A stretch of DNA of 51,821 nt from Shigella phage pSf-1. Both the position numbers and the translations under genes were made by a program. The DNA lies in the sequence record KC710998; one strand, given 5' to 3'. This document shows, piece after piece, positions 1,308-51,821 of the stretch (the first letter of the stretch is position 1; each line of letters opens with the position of its first letter). Under the pieces are notes generated by a model. It was not told where the DNA came from and did no database searches. It saw nothing but the letters and a program-made list of their open reading frames with translations.

Positions 1308-2240
1308 TTAGAGAAGAGATTCAGGTTTGTAAACCTTTCTCTCTATCCCTTGCCTGTAATTATCATGAATCGGCATCATAATTTCAAGTCCTCTTTCCTC
1401 GGCAGCAATGATCGCGTCACGGTCTGTACTCTTACAGACAACTCGCATTCTTCTGTTGCCTTTATACCTGTAAGCTACAATCTCAATATTCGTTGCATCA
1501 AAGCAGGCCCAAACCTCTTGACCAGTTGCAAGGTGAATATGTTGCGCATCAATCCAGTCAACGCAAAGATAGATAGTCTTATCGGTGCTTCCTGTTCTAA
1601 CAACCGACCCCCGCGTGTAGTCCTTTGCGAGAAAAGACTGTTTACCTTCTTCATCAATGAAAAGCACATTGCACATTTCATCATCAACATCATCTGAATG
1701 CACAAGGTAACATGGTAACGCGTGAATGTATCGACCATCTTTTACGCCGCAATCATAATGACCATCTTCAGGCGGGTATATTCCTTCATATGTGCTTAAC
1801 GGCGTGCGATCAAATTTTAGTGTTTTTGACATAACGCGCTCGCAGCATTCATGGCTTGCCTGTTTCCCAAACGAATAACCAGAATCACGAGATACTCGCT
1901 TATTTGCCTTGATTCTATAGTCCTGCGGAACTTTTCCAAGAAAACGGCCCAAAATATTGATCACTTCGCTGTAAGGTTCTCCGGTTAGCTTCATGATCCA
2001 ACCAATTCCGGTATCATTACCGCACACGTTGCAGATCGCACCGCCATCGCCTTTTTTATCGCCAAGTTTATCCGTCCATCTGAAGCGATCCTTTCCGCCG
2101 CAGTGGGGGCAAGATTGATGCTTGCCGTTAAAAACTTCATTTGGAAGACCGCAAATACTTTGTAGCGCCTCACGCCACAATCCTTGCATATATGGGAGAA
2201 CATCTTCCTTTTGATAAACCATAAAGTTTTCGTTATTCAT
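1308..2240 (-). CDS. DNA primase (P4-type zinc-binding / toprim-like)
   Basis: CPHCGG...CNVCGND zinc-ribbon motif; start moved to internal ATG (MNNENFMVYQ) with GAGGTG RBS; track ORF 1308..2342. Confidence 0.6.
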   Translation of the reverse strand: MNNENFMVYQKEDVLPYMQGLWREALQSICGLPNEVFNGKHQSCPHCGGKDRFRWTDKLGDKKGDGGAICNVCGNDTGIGWIMKLTGEPYSEVINILGRFLGKVPQDYRIKANKRVSRDSGYSFGKQASHECCERVMSKTLKFDRTPLSTYEGIYPPEDGHYDCGVKDGRYIHALPCYLVHSDDVDDEMCNVLFIDEEGKQSFLAKDYTRGSVVRTGSTDKTIYLCVDWIDAQHIHLATGQEVWACFDATNIEIVAYRYKGNRRMRVVCKSTDRDAIIAAEERGLEIMMPIHDNYRQGIERKVYKPESLL

Positions 2241-2295
2241 ATGCACCTCAAACAAAAAAGCCTGACAGATGATAACATCATGCCAGGCATTGTTT

Positions 2296-2769
2296 TTAGC
2301 AATTAGTGCTTTCAGGTTTATACAGGAATCCGCCAGGTTCATAATCTGACATTCTTACCACTCGCAACATTTCACGCTTATCACATCTCTTTGTGAGCGG
2401 TTTTCCATTGGAATCAAATCGCAGATCTGGACGACAGAATGAAGCGCGATAGCCTTGACAGCCATACTTTTTGTAATCGTTATGCACCTTTTGAGCGCCA
2501 GCGGCTGAAATCATACCGCGAACTCGCCACTGATTTACAGTTTGCTGGCTAACGTTAAGACGTTTTGCCATTGCTGACACACTTCCGTAATACTCAATAA
2601 GGATGTCAAGTCGAGCTTTTAGTCCGGCTCGCACTTCATCTTTTAGTACATAGTATCCTGTCGGGCGCTTGCGCTTCTTCTTATCCTTCCCTCGTCGAGT
2701 TCCGTTGTTTCCATTAATTGTGCGCTTGTCAATCTTGCCAGTTGATACTGCGATTCGCTGTTCTTTCAT
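2296..2769 (-). CDS. HTH DNA-binding protein (Cro/YdaS-like regulator)
   Basis: helix-turn-helix segment SVSAMAKRLNVSQQTVNQWRVRG; basic N-terminus; divergent from helicase gene. Confidence 0.5.
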   Translation of the reverse strand: MKEQRIAVSTGKIDKRTINGNNGTRRGKDKKKRKRPTGYYVLKDEVRAGLKARLDILIEYYGSVSAMAKRLNVSQQTVNQWRVRGMISAAGAQKVHNDYKKYGCQGYRASFCRPDLRFDSNGKPLTKRCDKREMLRVVRMSDYEPGGFLYKPESTNC

Positions 2770-8173: not shown

Positions 8174-8389
8174 ATGAAAGATTTTTTAAACGCCGCAACT
8201 TCCGGTACTGGCGGCGCGTCAATCACTGGCGCGGTAACTGGTCAAACAACTATCGCAATAGCCAGCTTAGTTTTGATGGCTGCATTTGGTATGTGGGGCG
8301 CTTATCTTCGTTGGCGTGATAGCAAGGCGCTACGTGACGCTCTTGAATGCGGTGATATTAAGAAAGCTATTGAGATCAGAGGTAAATAA
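8174..8389 (+). CDS. holin (small, pinholin-like)
   Basis: 71 aa, hydrophobic core, charged C-terminus, directly upstream of and overlapping endolysin start. Confidence 0.55.
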
Positions 8390-8877
8390 TGAGTATAAAA
8401 CAAAGAGTGACCGCTGCGGCTTTTGGCGTTGCTCTTGCCCTTACTTCTCCGCTACTGGAGGAAATAGAAGGAGTAAAATATAAGCCGTACAAAGATATTG
8501 CTGGGATATGGACGGTTTGCGCCGGAATAACTGGACCTGACGTAATACAAGGCAAAACGTACACACAAAGAGAGTGTGATGCACTACTGGCAAAGCATAT
8601 CAAGATCGCAAAGGATGAAGTTGATAAGAGTGTAAAGGTTGACATTCCTGATACAATGCGCGCAGCAATGTATTCATTCACATACAATGCTGGAACTGGA
8701 GCTTTTAGAAATTCAACCATGCTTAAGCTGATTAATAGAGGTCGTTACATGGAAGCGTGTAATCAGTTATGGCGATGGACCAAGTACACCAATCCAAAAA
8801 CTGGAAAGAAAGAAACGTCTAAAGGACTGCGCAACCGCCGCGCGGTGGAATTTAAATATTGCATTAAGGATCTGTAA
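8389..8877 (+). CDS. SAR endolysin (T4-lysozyme-like muramidase)
   Basis: N-terminal weakly hydrophobic Ala/Gly-rich signal-anchor-release segment; catalytic E-x8-D-x5-T triad ([16 protein letters not shown]). Confidence 0.7.
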
Positions 8878-8879
8878 TT

Positions 8880-9296
8880 ATGCGAAAGTTATCACTAATC
8901 GCGATCGCTGTTATTTTGTCTGGATGTTCAAGCGTTACGCCACTGACCGGATTAATCGGTAGTAAGCCGGAAATCACCGCGCAGGCAGGAGCGGAGAACG
9001 TAAAGCAGACCGTAGGCCTGACAGCAAAACAGGACGCAAGCAACAAGCAGGATACAACCATTAAAGATTCGAAAGTTGACACGGTTGATACTTCCAGCAA
9101 AAAGGAGATCAAAACGTCAACCATTCAGGCAAACACCATCAAGGCTGATAAAATCCAGGTTGTGCAGGGTGAGCAAAGGAAGTGGTACGATCCTATAATC
9201 TATTGCGCTGCAATTTTCAGTGGTCTTTTGACTATGCTTTACTTTTCCTACCGCAAAGACAACAAAAAGGAGCTTAACGCCTCCTTTGTTTTATAG
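8880..9296 (+). CDS. unimolecular spanin (lipoprotein with C-terminal TMD)
   Basis: N-terminal lipobox LSGC and C-terminal transmembrane helix; position after endolysin. Confidence 0.6.
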   Translation: MRKLSLIAIAVILSGCSSVTPLTGLIGSKPEITAQAGAENVKQTVGLTAKQDASNKQDTTIKDSKVDTVDTSSKKEIKTSTIQANTIKADKIQVVQGEQRKWYDPIIYCAAIFSGLLTMLYFSYRKDNKKELNASFVL

Positions 9297-44547: not shown

Positions 44548-44572
44548 AAGGGGGCTTTTGCCCCCTTTTTTA
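44548..44572. terminator. bidirectional rho-independent terminator between convergent genes
   Basis: GGGGGC-tttt-GCCCCC flanked by A-run and T-run. Confidence 0.65.
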
Positions 44573-45535
44573 ATACATATTTGGAGTGAATGGTATAGGC
44601 ATTGAAATATTTATATTAAATGGAAATTGAGCGCCGCTCTGAGTAGAATAGTTACCTACCCTTGTTCCTGGGGTACTTCTTACGTTGCCACCACTCATGC
44701 ATACGCCCTTGTATCGAATGTTATTATATCCACCCGTAACTCTACATATTGTACCTGTTCTCAGTATTGGGAAAAATCCACCGCACCACTGCCAACCATC
44801 ATTTATCGCCATAGTCCCGCCAAGAACAAAAGGACGTCTAACGCTTGAGAAAACTATCTGACCAGCAGGATTGCTCATAGTGATTCCTGGTCCTGGAGGT
44901 GGTGGAGTGTTATTAAATATTACGAGTTGCACGTATACGCTCGCGCCAACGTCATCAATTCCGTTATAGTTTGCATCTCTGCACCATATCGTGTTGCCGT
45001 CAGATTCCAGAGTTACGTTTGGGTTATCCCACATTCCGAAAGGAACACCCTGGACTGGCAACTGAGCCTGACCGTTAACCTGGATTCCTCCAACAAATGC
45101 CGCGCTCATTAACCTGGCGTTGTTCGGTATTGATGCAAAGTCCGTTGAGTCGCTAACAAGTATCCCCTGATTACCCGCCTGAGCGGGGAGTATTTCGTAG
45201 CAGTTGCCGTAAAACCTCATTCTCCTTCCCCTGCTCCCGTTAAAATTACCTACCGTTATTCGACCAGTTGCGTCATTTACCTTTTGAAAGCTGGTTAAAT
45301 AATAAACTTCCGGTATGTAATCCATATCGTCGATATAAACGGCTTGAGATGGAAGGCAAAAAGCCGTTGATCCTGGACTCATTTGCAAACCAAAATCAAA
45401 TACTGATCCAGATGAATCAACTCCGTCGGCTTGTATAGGTCCACACCATGATGGGGCGCGAAGTCCCGATGTTATCTCCATTGCCGGACGACCGTCATTT
45501 AGGTTTATATATATTCCCTGCCCCATAATTACCAC
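44570..45535 (-). CDS. putative receptor-binding protein (inference from context)
   Basis: 321 aa, Gly/Asn/Ser-rich; co-oriented with and directly downstream of lipoprotein gene; convergent with J. Confidence 0.35.
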   Translation of the reverse strand: MVIMGQGIYINLNDGRPAMEITSGLRAPSWCGPIQADGVDSSGSVFDFGLQMSPGSTAFCLPSQAVYIDDMDYIPEVYYLTSFQKVNDATGRITVGNFNGSRGRRMRFYGNCYEILPAQAGNQGILVSDSTDFASIPNNARLMSAAFVGGIQVNGQAQLPVQGVPFGMWDNPNVTLESDGNTIWCRDANYNGIDDVGASVYVQLVIFNNTPPPPGPGITMSNPAGQIVFSSVRRPFVLGGTMAINDGWQWCGGFFPILRTGTICRVTGGYNNIRYKGVCMSGGNVRSTPGTRVGNYSTQSGAQFPFNINISMPIPFTPNMY

Positions 45536-47402: not shown

Positions 47403-47681
47403 ATGGAAAACAAACAAGTGTCAGAGGTGGCAGTTCATATCAATAATTTTGCAACTGGCATGGCTATGTTGCTTCGTGATTTTGTAGCGCCGCTTGATCC
47501 AACGGCAGGCGCAGAAGAGATGGAGTACATCAGAAAAGTAATTGATGCAGTCGATAACGTCGTACTTGTTGCAACAATGAGCGAAGACAACGAGGAAGCA
47601 ATCAAGGCGGTAAAAGAAAGTTCTGATCGCATGATGGAAAATCTGATTAAATTACACACCAAAGAAGAAACAAAACATTAA
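47403..47681 (+). CDS. hypothetical protein
   Basis: ORF track; AAGGAAATAAAC RBS. Confidence 0.4.
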   Translation: MENKQVSEVAVHINNFATGMAMLLRDFVAPLDPTAGAEEMEYIRKVIDAVDNVVLVATMSEDNEEAIKAVKESSDRMMENLIKLHTKEETKH

Positions 47682-48885: not shown

Positions 48886-48908
48886 AAAGGGGCATTACGC
48901 CCCTTTTT
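48886..48908 (+). terminator. rho-independent terminator
   Basis: GGGGC-attac-GCCCC + T5. Confidence 0.55.
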
Positions 48909-49152
48909 CACTTTCAGCCATCCCAAGCACGGCAATAACCTTAACAGCAATTCGCTTTGCAAGTTCAGTTTGATGAGCGTTAAGTTTTCCAGTGGTCATT
49001 ATTGACAACATTCCGCTCATACTTCCAAGCCCGTTAAAATCTGACATTGCCGATTTCATGATTGATATTGGTGAGTGACCTTCATCAGCTATTGTGTGCG
49101 CTCTCTCTGACAAGTCTTTAACTACCTGATCAATTCCTTCACTTTTCGTCAT
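48895..49152 (-). CDS. hypothetical protein
   Basis: ORF track. Confidence 0.35.
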   Translation of the reverse strand: MTKSEGIDQVVKDLSERAHTIADEGHSPISIMKSAMSDFNGLGSMSGMLSIMTTGKLNAHQTELAKRIAVKVIAVLGMAESEKGA

Positions 49153-49630
49153 TTGCTTTTCCTTCAGGAGTTGATTGCTGTTCTGGCATTACAGGCCACG
49201 GGCTAATTGATTCCCTTTCTGCTACTGCCTTTTCAGGTTCAATTCCTAAAAACTTTCCTACAAACTCACCAACAAAATTTGAGCTATCGCTTACATAAAC
49301 ATGCATCCTGTCTAGATCTGCAACAGTAACGCTATTTGGTGCGATCATGATCCTCTGTTGGTGAAAACCGATATACATCACATTAGCCGGACGCTCAAGA
49401 GTTCCCATATTTGGCGCAATTACGCCCATTATCCAACAATAATGAATGTTGCCATCAAGAGGTTCACATCCTGCGTTAAGCCAGTTTACTTTCTGGTGTG
49501 GGAATGCCATTGATGAATCAGTAGCATCACGCCGTAACGACCATTTAACGCCGCCAATCTCAATGATTTGTTTCGGCCTCATTCCGTTGAATTGAGTCAC
49601 GCCAGCGCCATTTTGATTAATGTTTTGCAT
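49139..49630 (-). CDS. hypothetical protein
   Basis: ORF track. Confidence 0.4.
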   Translation of the reverse strand: MQNINQNGAGVTQFNGMRPKQIIEIGGVKWSLRRDATDSSMAFPHQKVNWLNAGCEPLDGNIHYCWIMGVIAPNMGTLERPANVMYIGFHQQRIMIAPNSVTVADLDRMHVYVSDSSNFVGEFVGKFLGIEPEKAVAERESISPWPVMPEQQSTPEGKANDEK

Positions 49631-49644
49631 ATCGGTTAACCTTT

Positions 49645-49968
49645 TTACATTGATTTCATTTTACGCAATGCGCAGATACAAGCGGCAGCAAGATCGGTTA
49701 ATTCTTTCTCTATGCCATGATGCGAGCCGTCTGCCTTTTCGGTCATTAGCTCTTTGTATTCCATTTCTACAATCAACATTAAGCCGCCTGGCTTGTCAAT
49801 GTGCGCGTCCCAGGTCTTAGGATAGTGCTTAGTTCTTTCCATAACACTTCCCATAACTGAATCATGTTTGCTATCTCGCTCATAATCATCATCATGATCA
49901 TCACTCCCTATTGAAACTCGCGGCAAATGAATGCGCGGTATTTTATAGCCAGCATAACGGATCTTCAT
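49645..49968 (-). CDS. hypothetical protein
   Basis: ORF track. Confidence 0.4.
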   Translation of the reverse strand: MKIRYAGYKIPRIHLPRVSIGSDDHDDDYERDSKHDSVMGSVMERTKHYPKTWDAHIDKPGGLMLIVEMEYKELMTEKADGSHHGIEKELTDLAAACICALRKMKSM

Positions 49969-50017
49969 TATCTCGCCCTCTTGATGAAAAGCGCCCCGAA
50001 AGGCGCTTGATTTATTA

Positions 50018-50719
50018 TCAGCCGCAACAGCCAGTAGGCGGAGTCTGAGGAGTAGGCAACTTGAAGTTTACCAATTGCTCTACCTGGTTGATTTTGCAAT
50101 TCAGTGCGGCGGTCTGGTTTGCCTGAGAAAGAGCAAAACGAGCCTCCTGCAACTGAGCTTTCATATCGCAAATCAGAACAGCCTGAGAATCAGCGAACTG
50201 TTGACGAATCAGATCTCGCGTTGCGTTACCTTGTCGCTCAATGTTCAGGTTAGTCTCGCAGCAACATCTCTCCGCTGCAATCTGTGCCTGATAGGAACGC
50301 TCAAGAGCATTAACATCAGCAGCATTAATTGCAGCAACCGTCTGGTTAGTACCGCTAACAATCGCGGTATTCAGTCCGGCGAAACCTTGCACCGATGCAA
50401 GCAGGTTTTGCGTATTCTGGCTGGTAATGCCGTTAAAGGTTGATGCGGCGGAGCGCTCAACGGTAAGGTTTGTGGAGTTTTGGCCTTGCAGAGTTTGCAG
50501 CCCCAGGTTGTTTACGCCTGTCTGGATGTTGTTAATACCATCAAGAACAGCGTTAGCACCGACAGCAACAGCAGCACCATCACCACCATAACCGCCGCGA
50601 CCATTAAAGCCGTTACCAAACCATGACCCAATCAGGCCACCAACAGCACCGCCAAGACCAGCCGCGCCAGCTTCGCCACCAAAACCACCACCAGTAGGGA
50701 GTAAAGTCATATCTGACAT
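50018..50719 (-). CDS. glycine-rich protein with Cys cluster (function unknown)
   Basis: N-terminal GGGFGGEAGAAGLGGAVGG...GRGGYGG low-complexity region, internal CCC and C-terminal GCCG; AGAGGAA RBS. Confidence 0.45.
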   Translation of the reverse strand: MSDMTLLPTGGGFGGEAGAAGLGGAVGGLIGSWFGNGFNGRGGYGGDGAAVAVGANAVLDGINNIQTGVNNLGLQTLQGQNSTNLTVERSAASTFNGITSQNTQNLLASVQGFAGLNTAIVSGTNQTVAAINAADVNALERSYQAQIAAERCCCETNLNIERQGNATRDLIRQQFADSQAVLICDMKAQLQEARFALSQANQTAALNCKINQVEQLVNFKLPTPQTPPTGCCG

Positions 50720-50854
50720 AGTAAATTCCTCTTTGACGTTAAAAAAATTAAAAAAAAGTTTGCAACATTTATGTTACGACAAAGAGTATGCGCCCAATTA
50801 CCATGAATAGATATAAAATATTTGTAAGCAATATGTAAGCAACTAGCATAAAGA

Positions 50855-50883
50855 CGAAAAAAAGCGCAGCATGAGCCGCGCTT
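50855..50883 (-). terminator. rho-independent terminator downstream of tail fiber gene
   Basis: AAGCGC...GCGCTT hairpin, followed on minus strand by T-run. Confidence 0.55.
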
Positions 50884-50898
50884 GAGTTAAAAATATTG

Positions 50899-51821
50899 TT
50901 ATTTATTGAGCAGTGCAGCAACAGCCGCCTTTAATTCGTCTATCTCCTTTTGCTGGTTTTCGATCATTCCTCCCATGTAAACCATAGCGCAAGCCATATC
51001 AGCCATGATCACGTTGTTGTCAAGAGCAAGCGTATCATCTGCTTTGTCAACCACAATTTGACGATCTACATATTCTTCACCTTCATCATTAACGCCTATA
51101 ACATCTGCAAAAATGTCCCCGCCAGGTATTAGCTTTACATATTCAGGATCTATTTTTAGCAGATCCTGAGCTATCATCCCAAATCGCTGAATGTTGCTTC
51201 CATTGTATTTAAACATTGTCGGAAGCCACTGCATAACGCGATCATAGCTTTCCTTTCCATCTGTATAAATTATATCGTGCTTCAAATCTCTGTCAGAGTT
51301 AGCGGCCTTTTGAAAAATGAAATTTCCACTTGATGACCATGTGGTTATATCGTTTGAGGCTGGCTGAAACTGGAAGTTACAGAAAAAATTACCATCACCA
51401 CGAAGTCTTAATGAGCAAAAAGGCCAAGCATTATTTCCCTGTGGGATAAGACCCCAAGTTGCACGAATTGGATAACCACCAGTTGATTGTGTACCCCATG
51501 AAAGGCCAGGCGCCCATCCACCGTCATTGTTAGGGATAATCTCGCCCCAAACAAGAGCATTACCCCAATAGTTAGGATCATCCATCCATTTGTTGGGTTT
51601 TGCCAGTGTATTGAGCAGAATGCGTTCTGCCGTCAGGGTAAAACTTGTGCATATAGCTTTGCACACCATGTTTATACAGTTCAATCCCAAACGACTCAAT
51701 TTGTGCAGCACCGCCTCTGATCAAACCAGCGATAGCGTAATCGCTATACCAGTTGTAACGACTTACACCAGTCCATGAGTTCATTGGTGGATTCATGATT
51801 GAATATAGTTGTGACGGATTG
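50899..51821 (-). CDS. tail fiber protein, C-terminal part with S74-type intramolecular chaperone domain (frame disrupted near 51580-51715)
   Basis: SDRDLKHDIIYTDG... autoproteolytic chaperone-like motif in ORF 50899..51711; upstream ORF 51578..51796 is in frame with the minus-strand ORF at 1..1208 if window ends are joined. Confidence 0.5.

Follow-up and report, generated by a model that had tools for sequence, protein, structure and literature searches.

A Glycine-Rich Protein with a Near-Invariant Cysteine Triad Heads a Mobile Four-Gene Phage Cassette and May Act at the Cell Envelope

Introduction

What is the role of a glycine-rich, cysteine-bearing protein encoded just beyond a phage tail fiber gene? 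The question arises at one end of the 51,821-nucleotide sequence of Shigella phage pSf-1 (KC710998; the whole stretch is called the window here), a Hanrivervirus of the T1-like group. An earlier note on this DNA had proposed that the protein could be a fiber-associated adhesin, a fiber chaperone, or a membrane-penetration factor. The gene and its neighbors have no assigned function, even though this group of coliphages is well sampled and includes members of the BASEL collection, and the labels that GenBank gives to the protein and its partners clash ("sugar-binding protein," "lateral tail fiber chaperone," "matrix protein," and "TerL"). In this study, we investigated the gene, its relatives, and its genomic surroundings by homology searches, structure prediction, and comparison of loci. 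Recognizing one portable, dispensable cassette corrects these contradictory labels.

Results

A conserved gene bracketed by hairpins

The upstream part of the locus is laid out as follows.

50862..50883, minus strand: intrinsic terminator at the boundary between the tail fiber gene and the cassette (9-bp stem, 6 G-C pairs, U7 tail)
50720..50861, minus strand: AT-rich leader/promoter region, kept among Hanriverviruses and containing the Shine-Dalgarno sequence
50018..50719, minus strand: gene 1, first in the cassette, encoding the Gly-rich/CCC protein (from the ORF list; PHROG 9288, E = 6.7e-125; 230 homologues)
49989..50008, minus strand: hairpin directly 3' of the gene 1 stop codon (-12.3 kcal/mol, z = -2.4, short U run)

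Exactly one ORF occupies the gene 1 interval. It begins with ATG, encodes 233 amino acids, and ends with a TGA followed by TAATAA, and a Shine-Dalgarno sequence, GAGGAA (50726-50731), lies 6 nt 5' of the start codon. Its translation bears out what the earlier note had described: a Gly/Ala-rich N-terminal tract (GGGFGGEAGAAGLGGAVGGLIGSWFGNGFNGRGGYGGDG, residues 10-48), an Asn/Gln/Thr-rich region, an internal CCC, and a C-terminal GCCG. Glycine makes up 20 of residues 1-52, the whole protein is rich in G (13.7%), A (13.3%), N (9.9%), Q (9.0%), and T (7.7%), and the cysteines at positions 152, 153, 154, 184, 208, 231, and 232 supply the CCC and GCCG motifs.

The match to PHROG 9288 covers residues 1-233 on profile positions 1-234, and the same profile was matched by 36/36 diverse relatives. 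At E<=1e-3, a search of a 5.8-billion-protein set returned the 230 homologues, and when proteins representing clusters at 50% identity were searched with a profile, 120 of them, one per cluster, matched. Because of the full-length PHROG match and the homologues found in these large searches, gene 1 is a genuine gene kept by conservation and no chance reading frame. Membership in PHROG 9288 supplies a name and no function, as the PHROG is without functional annotation, structure, or experimental data. Comparison of gene 1 with Pfam, NCBIfam, PADLOC, and PDB sequences gave nothing above threshold, and comparison of its predicted model with BFVD by Foldseek gave no fold match above threshold; the failure of the earlier note to recognize the family was thus well founded. 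The family is real and widely conserved in phages and has no homologue of known function. A ricin-B match in the PDB sequence search was noise (E = 0.62), although it could have given rise to the "sugar-binding" label. Among the anti-phage defense models of PADLOC, none matched genes 1, 3, or 4 of the cassette described below, and the best match of gene 2 was at E = 0.026.

The minus-strand ORF upstream of gene 1 (50899-51711) continues past the end of the window. It carries a Peptidase_S74 intramolecular-chaperone domain (E = 2e-8), matches tail fiber PHROGs, and corresponds to an S74-type lateral tail fiber gene, which confirms that gene 1 lies downstream of the tail fiber. The further proposal that it belongs to the tail fiber operon fares less well: the two genes are adjacent, but a strong terminator separates them (50862..50883; -15.7 kcal/mol, z = -4.4), and this element is annotated as a terminator in phage G29-2. 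The leader that follows contains a direct repeat, two copies of TTGCTTACA, and a near-palindrome, AACATAAATGTT, at 50764-50775. This 12-mer is found again upstream of the gene 1 homologue of phage Sasha, and a search for a sigma-70 promoter upstream of gene 1 gave no consensus match. Terminators are annotated in G29-2 and Sasha at the position equivalent to the hairpin behind the stop codon, which is possibly an attenuating terminator that reduces the output of the three genes downstream.

Gene 1 heads a four-gene cassette

Gene 1 is followed by three further genes, so that the cassette comprises genes of 233, 107, 163, and 85 amino acids.

49645..49968, minus strand: gene 2, 107 amino acids, PHROG 9157 (jackhmmer; BLAST matches to Seuratvirus, PY100, and temperate locus L011)
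49139..49630, minus strand: gene 3, 163 amino acids, PHROG 8329, with a beta-rich domain and an acidic tail bearing an SPWP motif
48895..49152, minus strand: gene 4, 85 amino acids, helical, PHROG 7239 (PHROG match)
48886..48906, no strand assigned: hairpin at the convergent junction with ssb that ends the cassette, annotated as a terminator in G29-2

The product of gene 2 has a charged, His/Asp-rich N terminus and a conserved helical C terminus (PPxTW...MEYxEL...KELxxLAAA), and its gene lies directly downstream of gene 1, or one small ORF away, in the window and in 18 fetched loci searched with jackhmmer. Homologues of gene 3 adjoin the gene 1 homologue in Seuratvirus, PY100, and loci L009, L010, L012, and L013; its AlphaFold2 model (pLDDT 76) gave no significant fold match. 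Gene 4 has homologues in the matching position in Seuratvirus and PY100, and proteins of similar size stand there in L009, L010, and L011. None of the products of genes 2 to 4 has a signal peptide or a transmembrane helix.

The gene order is kept, and homology can be detected, in Hanrivervirus, Seuratvirus, PY100, Sasha, and the metagenomic loci L009, L010, L012, and L013. At L011 and L017-L024, which are temperate, gene 2 shows detectable homology, and slots 3 and 4 hold ORFs of similar size; the ~180-amino-acid proteins in the gene 3 position of temperate relatives compare with the 163-amino-acid family at an hhalign probability of 9%. Records in the phage collection number 218 for gene 1, 138 for gene 3, and 113 for gene 2, with matching host breakdowns, and the excess for gene 1 arises because T5-like phages carry remnants of it.

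The cassette is mobile and dispensable

Carriers of the cassette include Hanrivervirus, Seuratvirus, 9NA-like phages, the myovirus PY100, a metagenomic myovirus, a T7-like podovirus, and temperate siphoviruses, and among the apparent hosts of the temperate relatives are Bilophila and Paludibacteraceae. Its position differs from one phage to another. It lies between terL and the portal gene in Sasha, within the early genes of PY100, behind the capsid and connector genes in L022, behind the tail tube gene in L017, and between the tail genes and the integrase in temperate L011, which is the classic moron position. In both Sasha and PY100, it begins at a divergent intergenic region. T1 and the Warwickvirus vB_EcoS-95 have the identical junction of ssb and fiber gene without the cassette. 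Elsewhere, there are deletion fusions (P0121 and KurtStettler) and frameshifted copies (T5-like phages), and Seurat retains only a remnant. From this comparison of genomes, the cassette is an autonomous, horizontally mobile, accessory, and dispensable unit: autonomous because terminators flank gene 1 on both sides and another follows gene 4, and accessory because it is absent from the T1/Warwickvirus junction and deleted, fused, or frameshifted in other phages.

This distribution bears directly on the idea that gene 1 is a tail fiber accessory, that is, an adhesin or chaperone for the S74-type lateral fiber. Gene 1 does adjoin S74-type lateral fiber genes in Hanrivervirus, Seuratvirus, and T5-like Epseptimavirus, and in KurtStettler its homologue forms an in-frame fusion with a protein that has an S74 domain. 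However, the cassette lies far from fiber genes in Sasha, PY100, L017, and L022, T1 and Warwickvirus make lateral fibers without it, the T5-like phages have only broken copies of gene 1, and the KurtStettler fusion lacks the conserved N terminus and therefore looks like a deletion. Together with the terminator between the two genes, these observations argue against the adhesin proposed in the earlier note and against a chaperone, for which the fiber in any case carries its own S74 intramolecular chaperone. A comparison of the gene 1 protein with Peptidase_S74 and tail fiber assembly families in Pfam and PHROG gave no match. The tail fiber reading, which the BASEL annotation of the fused ORF also adopts, is largely refuted by the distribution of the cassette, and we regard it as highly improbable.

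A putative membrane anchor precedes a predicted cysteine-bearing helical stalk

The gene 1 protein can be divided into the following parts.

50609..50719, minus strand: codons 1-37, conserved acidic N-terminal motif MSDMTLLP and glycine-zipper segment, a putative membrane anchor
50564..50608, minus strand: codons 38-52, variable Gly/aromatic/Arg linker (FNGRGGYGGDGAAVA), the part with the highest alignment variability
50060..50563, minus strand: codons 53-220, Asn/Gln/Thr/Ala-rich helical stalk (AlphaFold2 and conservation profile)
50258..50266, minus strand: codons 152-154, Cys triad of the CCCET motif
50021..50059, minus strand: codons 221-233, Pro/Thr-rich tail ending in GCCG

The glycine zipper has the form G23xxxG27xxxG31xxxG35, and its GxxxG register is kept across the relatives of gene 1; column entropy in the family alignment is low at residues 1-10 and 31-40. 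The only hydrophobic segment in the protein is the N-terminal one, and a C-terminal transmembrane anchor is absent. Distant members have hydrophobic helices, such as GILIILFFLIFGG and IWVILLFILLAGG, where gene 1 has the zipper, with Kyte-Doolittle values of up to 2.14. The N terminus is most likely a membrane anchor because these distant members have a true hydrophobic helix at the zipper position. The 19-residue Kyte-Doolittle maximum of the gene 1 segment itself is just 1.13, which falls short of the classical transmembrane threshold, so the segment could be peripheral or resemble a fusion peptide and form no stable transmembrane helix.

AlphaFold2 gave residues 1-52 a pLDDT of <50, with the Gly-rich N terminus disordered, and predicted a single long helix from residue 51 to 220 (pLDDT 64-83) in a model of moderate overall confidence (mean pLDDT 62). 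The stalk has a conserved QNTQNLLASVQGFAGLNTAI box at residues 101-120 and a hypervariable patch at residues 121-140, its tryptic peptides are 48-52 residues long, and an analysis of coiled-coil periodicity found no significant 3.5-3.7-residue (heptad) signal in it. In distant members, a QGFxGLN unit is repeated every 22 residues, as counted by eye. The CCC motif is present in 216/221 family members, and C153 and C154 are almost invariant even in members of 22-40% identity. Cys208 and the C-terminal CC are jointly present or jointly absent in 120/120 close homologues. This pattern suggests oligomers that may be locked by disulfides or by metal. A metal-binding idea drawn from the His-rich gene 2 product was set aside, as the His-rich tract is not kept across the gene 2 family.

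Two lines of evidence on topology conflict. The anchor has a more acidic N-terminal flank (D+E 1.5, K+R 0.33) and a more basic C-terminal one, and these charges, along with three soluble partners free of signal peptides, favor an N-out/C-in arrangement. The co-variation of the cysteines and the low-charge Asn/Gln/Thr composition favor an oxidizing, extracytoplasmic stalk.

The low hydrophobicity in the enterobacterial clade is also what would be expected if the protein were not inserted in the membrane at all and served as a soluble or peripheral filament or condensate scaffold that, with its partners, organizes something in the cytoplasm; it would have low-complexity Gly/aromatic heads, a rod of helix, and cysteine cross-links, similar to keratin or intermediate filaments. 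The linkers of the GGYGG/GGWGGRG type, the Arg/Asp/Gly-rich disordered region in gene 2 of temperate relatives, and the apparent solubility of all three partners fit such a scaffold. The transmembrane helices at the homologous position in distant members are unmistakable, however, and these helices, the conserved GxxxG register, and the lack of support for filament formation make a scaffold doubtful.

A different role for a membrane-active N terminus would be in the virion: the gene 1 product could be a packaged membrane-penetration or ejection protein, with a fusion-peptide-like or tape-measure-like N terminus that inserts at infection and with partners that chaperone it. The earlier suggestion of a membrane-penetration factor is conceivable, since the zipper and the hydrophobic helices of distant members make the N terminus look membrane active. 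Class I fusion subunits, such as influenza HA2, resemble gene 1 in that a hydrophobic, Gly-rich peptide containing Trp/Phe at the N terminus leads into a long helix rich in Asn/Gln. HA2 also gave the best PDB sequence matches of the gene 1 profile, although these were marginal (residues 4-86, E = 0.012, 18 bits) and are probably compositional, and gene 1 differs in having no C-terminal transmembrane helix, receptor-binding partner, or identified second heptad repeat. The adjacent cysteines in the stalk recall the "cysteine zipper" of the RSV F stalk, which is reportedly engineered. In the membrane-inserting segments of tape measure proteins, a Gly-rich hydrophobic stretch is likewise followed by helices, and PHROG 167 (tape measure) matched gene 1 weakly (E = 0.0066). 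Tape measure mimicry was rejected as a candidate: the score of a local match over 26 columns with the tape measure protein that the window itself encodes was reached by 60/1000 composition-preserving shuffles (p~0.06), and that protein is of normal size (890 amino acids). The proteome of T1-like vB_EcoS-95 comes from a phage that lacks the cassette and thus has no bearing on a place in the virion. We consider a virion-borne protein possible, though unlikely.

No match in Pfam, NCBIfam, or the PDB backs the likeness to colicin translocation domains and filamentous-phage adsorption proteins (g3p) drawn in the earlier note, and the resemblance is one of composition. Only a Gly-rich flexible N-terminal region is shared with colicin domains and g3p linkers; the Gly tract of gene 1 holds a conserved hydrophobic GxxxG helix, and the protein, unlike colicins and g3p, contains neither a receptor-binding nor a cytotoxic domain. 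Channel-forming peptides and class II microcins can contain glycine zippers, and gene 1 could by extension be a pore former or bacteriocin-like toxin that is released at lysis or acts on its producer, with immunity proteins or chaperones as partners. One of 36 family members matched Pfam Gly-zipper_Omp (E = 0.043, under the gathering threshold), and the N terminus ends in ...PTGG, which is loosely like a double-glycine leader. Nevertheless, no bacteriocin or glycine-zipper family (Gly-zipper_Omp/YMGG) was matched significantly, genes for export or processing are absent from the cassette, a protein of 233 amino acids with a long conserved helical body is unlike a microcin, and a virulent phage has no obvious gain from killing potential hosts. 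A toxin is thus very unlikely.

Gene 1 is unlikely to be a spanin

The putative bitopic layout of gene 1, with an N-terminal hydrophobic anchor, a long helix outside the membrane, and conserved cysteines, is also seen in i-spanins (lambda Rz and T7 gp18.5; PF03245), and in Rz conserved cysteines form intermolecular disulfides. This raises the prospect of a lysis membrane protein, either a large-domain holin or antiholin similar to T4 T, RI, or RIII, or a periplasm-spanning, spanin-like or outer-membrane-disrupting factor. The Pro-rich end of gene 1 completes an i-spanin-like architecture, and a LCDAKAKIxxLE motif of the family aligns locally with LADAKAENDAL of lambda Rz. In addition, lysis genes stand directly beside the cassette in L009, the cassette occupies the holin position in T7-like L010, and its frequent loss in isolates recalls the T4 r genes. 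The direct comparisons argue against this assignment. The hhalign probabilities for gene 1 were 4.2% with lambda Rz, 0.6% with T7 gp18.5, and 1.3% with the Rz-like protein of L009, and Pfam Phage_lysis did not match it. The genomes concerned have spanins of their own: the window encodes an endolysin (8389-8877) and a u-spanin (8880-9296), L010 has a plainly visible overlapping i/o-spanin pair, and a lysozyme is encoded in L009 along with an Rz-like gene. The cassette is ~40 kb from the lysis cassette in the window, and the ORF list shows no lipobox ORF embedded in or adjacent to 50018-50719. Unlike i-spanins, gene 1 is encoded outside the lysis cassette without a partner lipoprotein gene, and its Gly-rich linker, CCC triad, and three soluble partners have no counterpart in them. 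On the hhalign values and the spanins already present in the same genomes, we reject a spanin identity, and we view the broader assignment to the lysis proteins as unlikely. The cassette is neither a tail fiber component nor part of the canonical lysis machinery.

Discussion

The analysis of this locus demonstrates a gene, the family to which it belongs, and a mobile, dispensable cassette that it heads, together with the absence of any known homologue. Our preferred explanation, to which we assign a probability of roughly one in three, is that the gene 1 product is an inner-membrane stalk protein of an accessory envelope-acting module that serves superinfection exclusion or lysis timing. It would most likely be a single-pass inner-membrane protein, anchored by the short acidic N-terminal peptide and the glycine-zipper helix. 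A flexible Gly/aromatic linker would connect this anchor to a stalk of ~170 residues, mostly helical and bearing the near-invariant Cys triad, and the Pro/Thr tail would come last, with its terminal Cys pair co-varying with Cys208. As the first gene, gene 1 would probably give the most abundant product of the cassette, and the other three would be small soluble proteins. The complex could act at the envelope of the infected cell and confer a conditional advantage, with the likeliest roles being to block DNA entry by superinfecting phages or to tune the timing of lysis. We infer membrane insertion, oligomerization through the cysteines, the relative abundance of the product, and the physiological role from features of the protein and the cassette; the searches found no homology linking the family to exclusion, lysis timing, or another function.

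Superinfection exclusion and moron membrane proteins provide a parallel in genetic terms. HK97 gp15, T4 Imm and Sp, and P22 SieA are small examples of this class. Like the cassette, such proteins are encoded by autonomous accessory units near tail or integrase genes that are dispensable and patchily distributed. They act singly, in contrast to the four-gene cassette with its long stalk protein, and are not known to share sequence similarity with it, nor did the searches reveal any. Known exclusion proteins are usually the products of single genes, and four genes are unusually complex for an exclusion system.

A bolder proposal, to which we give only a small weight, is that the four genes encode a new envelope-acting phage machine. 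A class-I-fusion-like, cysteine-zipped stalk with a membrane-inserting Gly-rich N-terminal peptide would then remodel, bridge, or breach the Gram-negative envelope without recourse to holins, spanins, or tape measure proteins, as a plug-in cassette traded among siphoviruses, myoviruses, and podoviruses. If so, the few kinds of phage protein known to manipulate the Gram-negative envelope would be joined by a new one. If the preferred reading is correct and the stalk protein excludes phages or sets lysis timing, the cassette would matter for the design of phage cocktails. The cassette is common to T1-like, 9g/Seurat-like, and 9NA-like phages, PY100-like myoviruses, a T7-like podovirus, and temperate phages, and it is a tractable genetic unit because sister phages with and without it exist in nature.

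Gene 1 and its immediate setting

Gene 1 is clearly a real gene, since its product matches PHROG 9288 over its full length (E=6.7e-125) and has homologues, 230 of them at E<=1e-3. The window is approximately a whole Hanrivervirus genome (Drexlerviridae, T1-like), and the 2.2 kb around gene 1 shares 95% identity with Salmonella phage slyngel and 91-98% with the coliphages G29-2, vojen, egaa, grams and KarlJaspers. This coliphage region is also 97-99% identical to the 'Campylobacter phage' records A123, A118, A16a and A15b (MG065669, MG065675, MG065636 and MG065637), which list Campylobacter jejuni as host and are probably mislabelled or contaminant. A GAGGAA Shine-Dalgarno sequence stands 6 bases ahead of the gene 1 start codon. 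The Gly-rich N-terminus and Cys cluster described in the earlier note are borne out by composition, with Gly at 20 of residues 1-52, a body enriched in Asn, Gln, Thr and Ala, and Cys at 152-154, 184, 208 and 231-232. Its placement of the gene downstream of the tail fibre is likewise correct, as the following features of this region indicate.

50899-51711, continuing past the window end, minus strand: tail-fibre ORF with a Peptidase_S74 intramolecular-chaperone domain and matches to tail-fibre PHROGs
Between fibre gene and gene 1, minus strand: strong terminator (-15.7 kcal/mol, U7)
50018-50719, minus strand: gene 1, 233 aa, ATG start
3' of the gene 1 stop codon, minus strand: weaker hairpin (-12.3 kcal/mol)
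Downstream of gene 1, minus strand: gene 2, 107 aa, PHROG 9157, function unassigned
Downstream of gene 1, minus strand: gene 3, 163 aa, PHROG 8329, function unassigned
Downstream of gene 1, minus strand: gene 4, 85 aa, PHROG 7239, function unassigned

The G29-2 annotation marks both hairpins as terminators. Just past the fibre terminator, the leader holds two copies of a direct repeat, TTGCTTACA(T/A)AT (50830-50850, minus strand), which is kept among Hanriverviruses; a search of this leader for a consensus sigma-70 promoter found none. The near-palindrome AACATAAATGTT (50764-50775, minus strand) lies ~45 nt before gene 1 both in the window, where it occurs once, and in G29-2; it is also present upstream of the gene 1 homologue in the unrelated 9NA-like phage Sasha (L031:5192-5203). 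It may be an operator travelling with the cassette or a chance occurrence in AT-rich DNA.

A mobile four-gene cassette

Gene 1 belongs to a mobile four-gene cassette and not to the fibre. The cassette recurs in phages of several kinds:

Seuratvirus KurtStettler: all four genes, order kept, genes 2-4 at 51-67% identity
Myovirus PY100: all four genes, order kept (ORF29-32)
9NA-like Sasha: gp07-gp10, assigned by position and size, located between the terL and portal genes; gp07 and gp10 are each followed by a terminator
Metagenomic myovirus (L009): same order
T7-like podovirus (L010): order kept, without gene 2
Further viral contigs: same order

In Sasha, gene 1 is homologous and genes 2 and 3 match related 9NA-like records. 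Temperate relatives (L011, L017-L024) have recognisable genes 1 and 2 and ORFs of ~180 and ~80 aa in slots 3 and 4, the ~180-aa protein scoring 9% against the gene 3 family by hhalign; a genome scan placed close relatives of this temperate type in Bilophila and Paludibacteraceae assemblies. The position of the cassette varies, following tail fibres, capsid/connector genes (L022) or the tail tube gene (L017), adjoining an integrase (L011), or forming its own divergent unit (Sasha, PY100). Phage-collection records number 218 for gene 1, 138 for gene 3 and 113 for gene 2, with matching host breakdowns, and the gene 1 surplus is due to T5-like phages that hold remnants only.

Two neighbouring genes were also seen. 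In Seuratvirus a 67-aa Cys-rich protein (MCGNTNRCCLG...CNC..., KurtStettler bas22_0028, L004:6782-6985) follows the cassette; it has no window counterpart and is possibly a further partner. A viral contig encodes, a few kb away from its cassette, a 470-aa protein bearing a Cas_Csy2 domain (E=1e-15; L017:10776-12188, minus strand), which may be a phage-borne CRISPR-Cas component.

Judging from related genomes, the cassette is dispensable: in T1 and in the Warwickvirus vB_EcoS-95, of a sister genus, ssb directly adjoins the convergent lateral fibre gene, and the cassette is missing. Natural deletion derivatives exist as well, namely P0121, a protein from 11 contigs of up to 61 kb in which gene 1 is fused at ...CCCETNLNIER to mid gene 3 (PVNVMY), and Seurat (NC_027378, 20427-20543), where a gene 3 piece alone is left within a 'tail fiber protein' annotation. 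In KurtStettler, gene 1 lacks its first ~16 codons and is fused in frame to the upstream S74-domain ORF (bas22_0024, L004:3981-5513), probably through a deletion, and this fusion gave rise to the misleading 'putative lateral tail fiber chaperone' label copied into phage PJ16. Epseptimaviruses carry frameshifted gene 1 remnants after an S74 fibre gene, as in the T5-like Salmonella phage polluks (L005:4749-5339, directly 3' of the lateral fibre gene, without genes 2-4), and ~80-100 Epseptimavirus records give similar partial matches, a pattern suggesting that the 3' end of the fibre gene moved together with the start of the cassette. Because the cassette is absent, fused or remnant in several phages, the recurrent S74-fibre neighbourhood in enterobacterial phages is best taken as joint transfer of neighbouring DNA, not functional dependence. 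The adhesin or chaperone role suggested in the earlier note has that neighbourhood in its favour; against it stand the terminator between fibre gene and gene 1, the occurrence of gene 1 within a mobile cassette elsewhere and the cassette-free T1 and Warwickvirus genomes, and we regard a fibre accessory as the least probable of the readings considered here.

Anatomy and probable membrane anchor of the gene 1 protein

The 230 homologues lack Pfam domains and informative names. Profile searching across 1.8 billion cluster representatives added 120 more distant ones, one per cluster, and alignments of close and distant members, together with a per-position entropy profile, divide the protein into six parts:

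Part 1: conserved N-terminal peptide, M-[SDTE]-[DE]-M-x-L-[LIV]-P
Part 2: hydrophobic segment with the register G23xxxG27xxxG31xxxG35, leading to a conserved GSWFGNG at its end
Part 3: variable Gly/Trp/Tyr/Arg linker
Part 4: long low-charge region with the very conserved box QNTQNLLASVQGFAGLNTAI, followed by a hypervariable patch (residues 121-140)
Part 5: motif CCCETNLNIERQ...ATR...LICD(L/M)K
Part 6: Pro/Thr-rich tail, with GCC frequent at its end

The QGFxGLN unit of part 4, counted by eye, occurs in 1-3 copies at ~22-residue spacing in distant members. AlphaFold2, run on an 82-sequence alignment, gave with moderate confidence (mean pLDDT 62) a disordered stretch at residues 1-52 and one helix at 51-220. 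Heptad periodicity gave no significant signal in the protein, so this result lends no support to a canonical coiled coil. CCC is present in 216 of 221 family members, and Cys208 and the C-terminal Cys pair are jointly present or jointly absent without exception among 120 close homologues, the pattern that would be expected for mutual bonding or a shared metal.

The N-terminal segment of the gene 1 protein is weakly hydrophobic (Kyte-Doolittle 1.13), as a non-membrane scaffold would allow. In distant members the homologous position is occupied by unmistakable transmembrane helices, among them GILIILFFLIFGG, IWVILLFILLAGG and WWIIILFLFAFC, and because of these we conclude that the N-terminus is a probable membrane anchor; a soluble scaffold seems to us improbable. 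The helices are flanked by acidic residues on the N side and slightly basic ones on the C side. These flank charges, like the cytoplasmic partners, favour an N-out/C-in topology; the Cys co-variation and low-charge composition favour an extracytoplasmic stalk.

We rejected a relationship to spanins, as the protein has no Rz homology and no lipoprotein partner and the host phages have spanins of their own: a u-spanin in the window (8880-9296, after the endolysin at 8389-8877), an overlapping i/o-spanin pair in the podovirus L010, and others in the myovirus L009. A tape measure relationship was also rejected, since the PHROG 167 match is weak and the local similarity to the tape measure protein encoded in the window does not stand out from shuffled sequences. 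Neither PADLOC nor NCBIfam returned a match for the protein.

A possible role at the host envelope

The joint best explanation, to which we give a probability of about one in three, is an anchored, Cys-locked inner-membrane stalk that serves as an envelope accessory in superinfection exclusion or lysis timing. The gene 1 protein would be a bitopic inner-membrane protein with a glycine-zipper helix as its anchor, and its helical stalk would oligomerise and be locked by the Cys triad and the contact between Cys208 and the terminal Cys. The hairpin 3' of gene 1 would leave its product more abundant than the three soluble partners. At the infected cell's envelope the complex would serve as an accessory of conditional benefit, most plausibly by keeping out superinfecting phages or by shifting the time of lysis. 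The comparisons above establish the gene, its family, the cassette and the cassette's mobility and dispensability; membrane insertion, oligomerisation, stoichiometry and physiological role are inferred from them. We favour such an accessory because the unit is autonomous in the manner of a moron, with terminators on both sides and a divergent intergenic start in Sasha and PY100, because the cassette sits between tail genes and an integrase in a temperate relative, and because it is spread across phages with unrelated virions, which argues for a host feature as target and not a virion feature. A direct part in lysis, as a lysis-related membrane protein, would share the predicted anchor; the window, L009 and L010 have spanins of their own, and we consider it as improbable as the scaffold. 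The Gly-rich anchor could also recall a pore-former or bacteriocin, which we think very unlikely.

The best PDB sequence matches of the family profile are influenza HA2 residues 4-86, which comprise the fusion peptide and first helix, and coronavirus spike ~711-830 (E ~0.012-0.02). The match suits the predicted layout of the gene 1 protein, in which a Gly-rich hydrophobic N-terminal peptide with Trp/Phe leads into a long polar helix, and this keeps a membrane-active role open; with a marginal score and compositionally biased regions, the resemblance is treated as analogy, not homology. A penetration protein borne by the virion is in our judgement unlikely, if somewhat less so than the scaffold or lysis protein.

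If the inner-membrane stalk is correct, the cassette could tentatively be placed with the accessory or moron membrane modules of phages; a machine of a new type acting on the envelope is unlikely. No relative of any of the four genes is characterised, and in GenBank they carry guessed labels that contradict one another. The cassette is well defined and easily tested, because natural plus and minus phages exist.

Other observations in the window

Three further features were noted.

47403-47681, plus strand: 92-aa ORF between recE and erf, PHROG 11265, 'tail length tape measure protein'
44570-45535, minus strand: 321-aa ORF immediately past the J-like tail tip gene and on the other strand, matching PHROG 1265 ('membrane protein', moron category)
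1-1300 and 50899-51821, minus strand: lateral tail-fibre ORF overrunning the window's high end

The label of the 92-aa ORF, which G29-2 shares, looks like a propagated mis-annotation because of the position and size of the ORF. The place of the 321-aa ORF is another accessory slot, since T1 has cor and other genes there. In relatives the fibre gene is followed by a primase gene, whose apparent equivalent in the window is the ORF at 1308-2342 (minus strand); because the fibre ORF overruns the end and this primase-like ORF lies near the start, the window is apparently a complete genome, circularly permuted and cut within the fibre gene.
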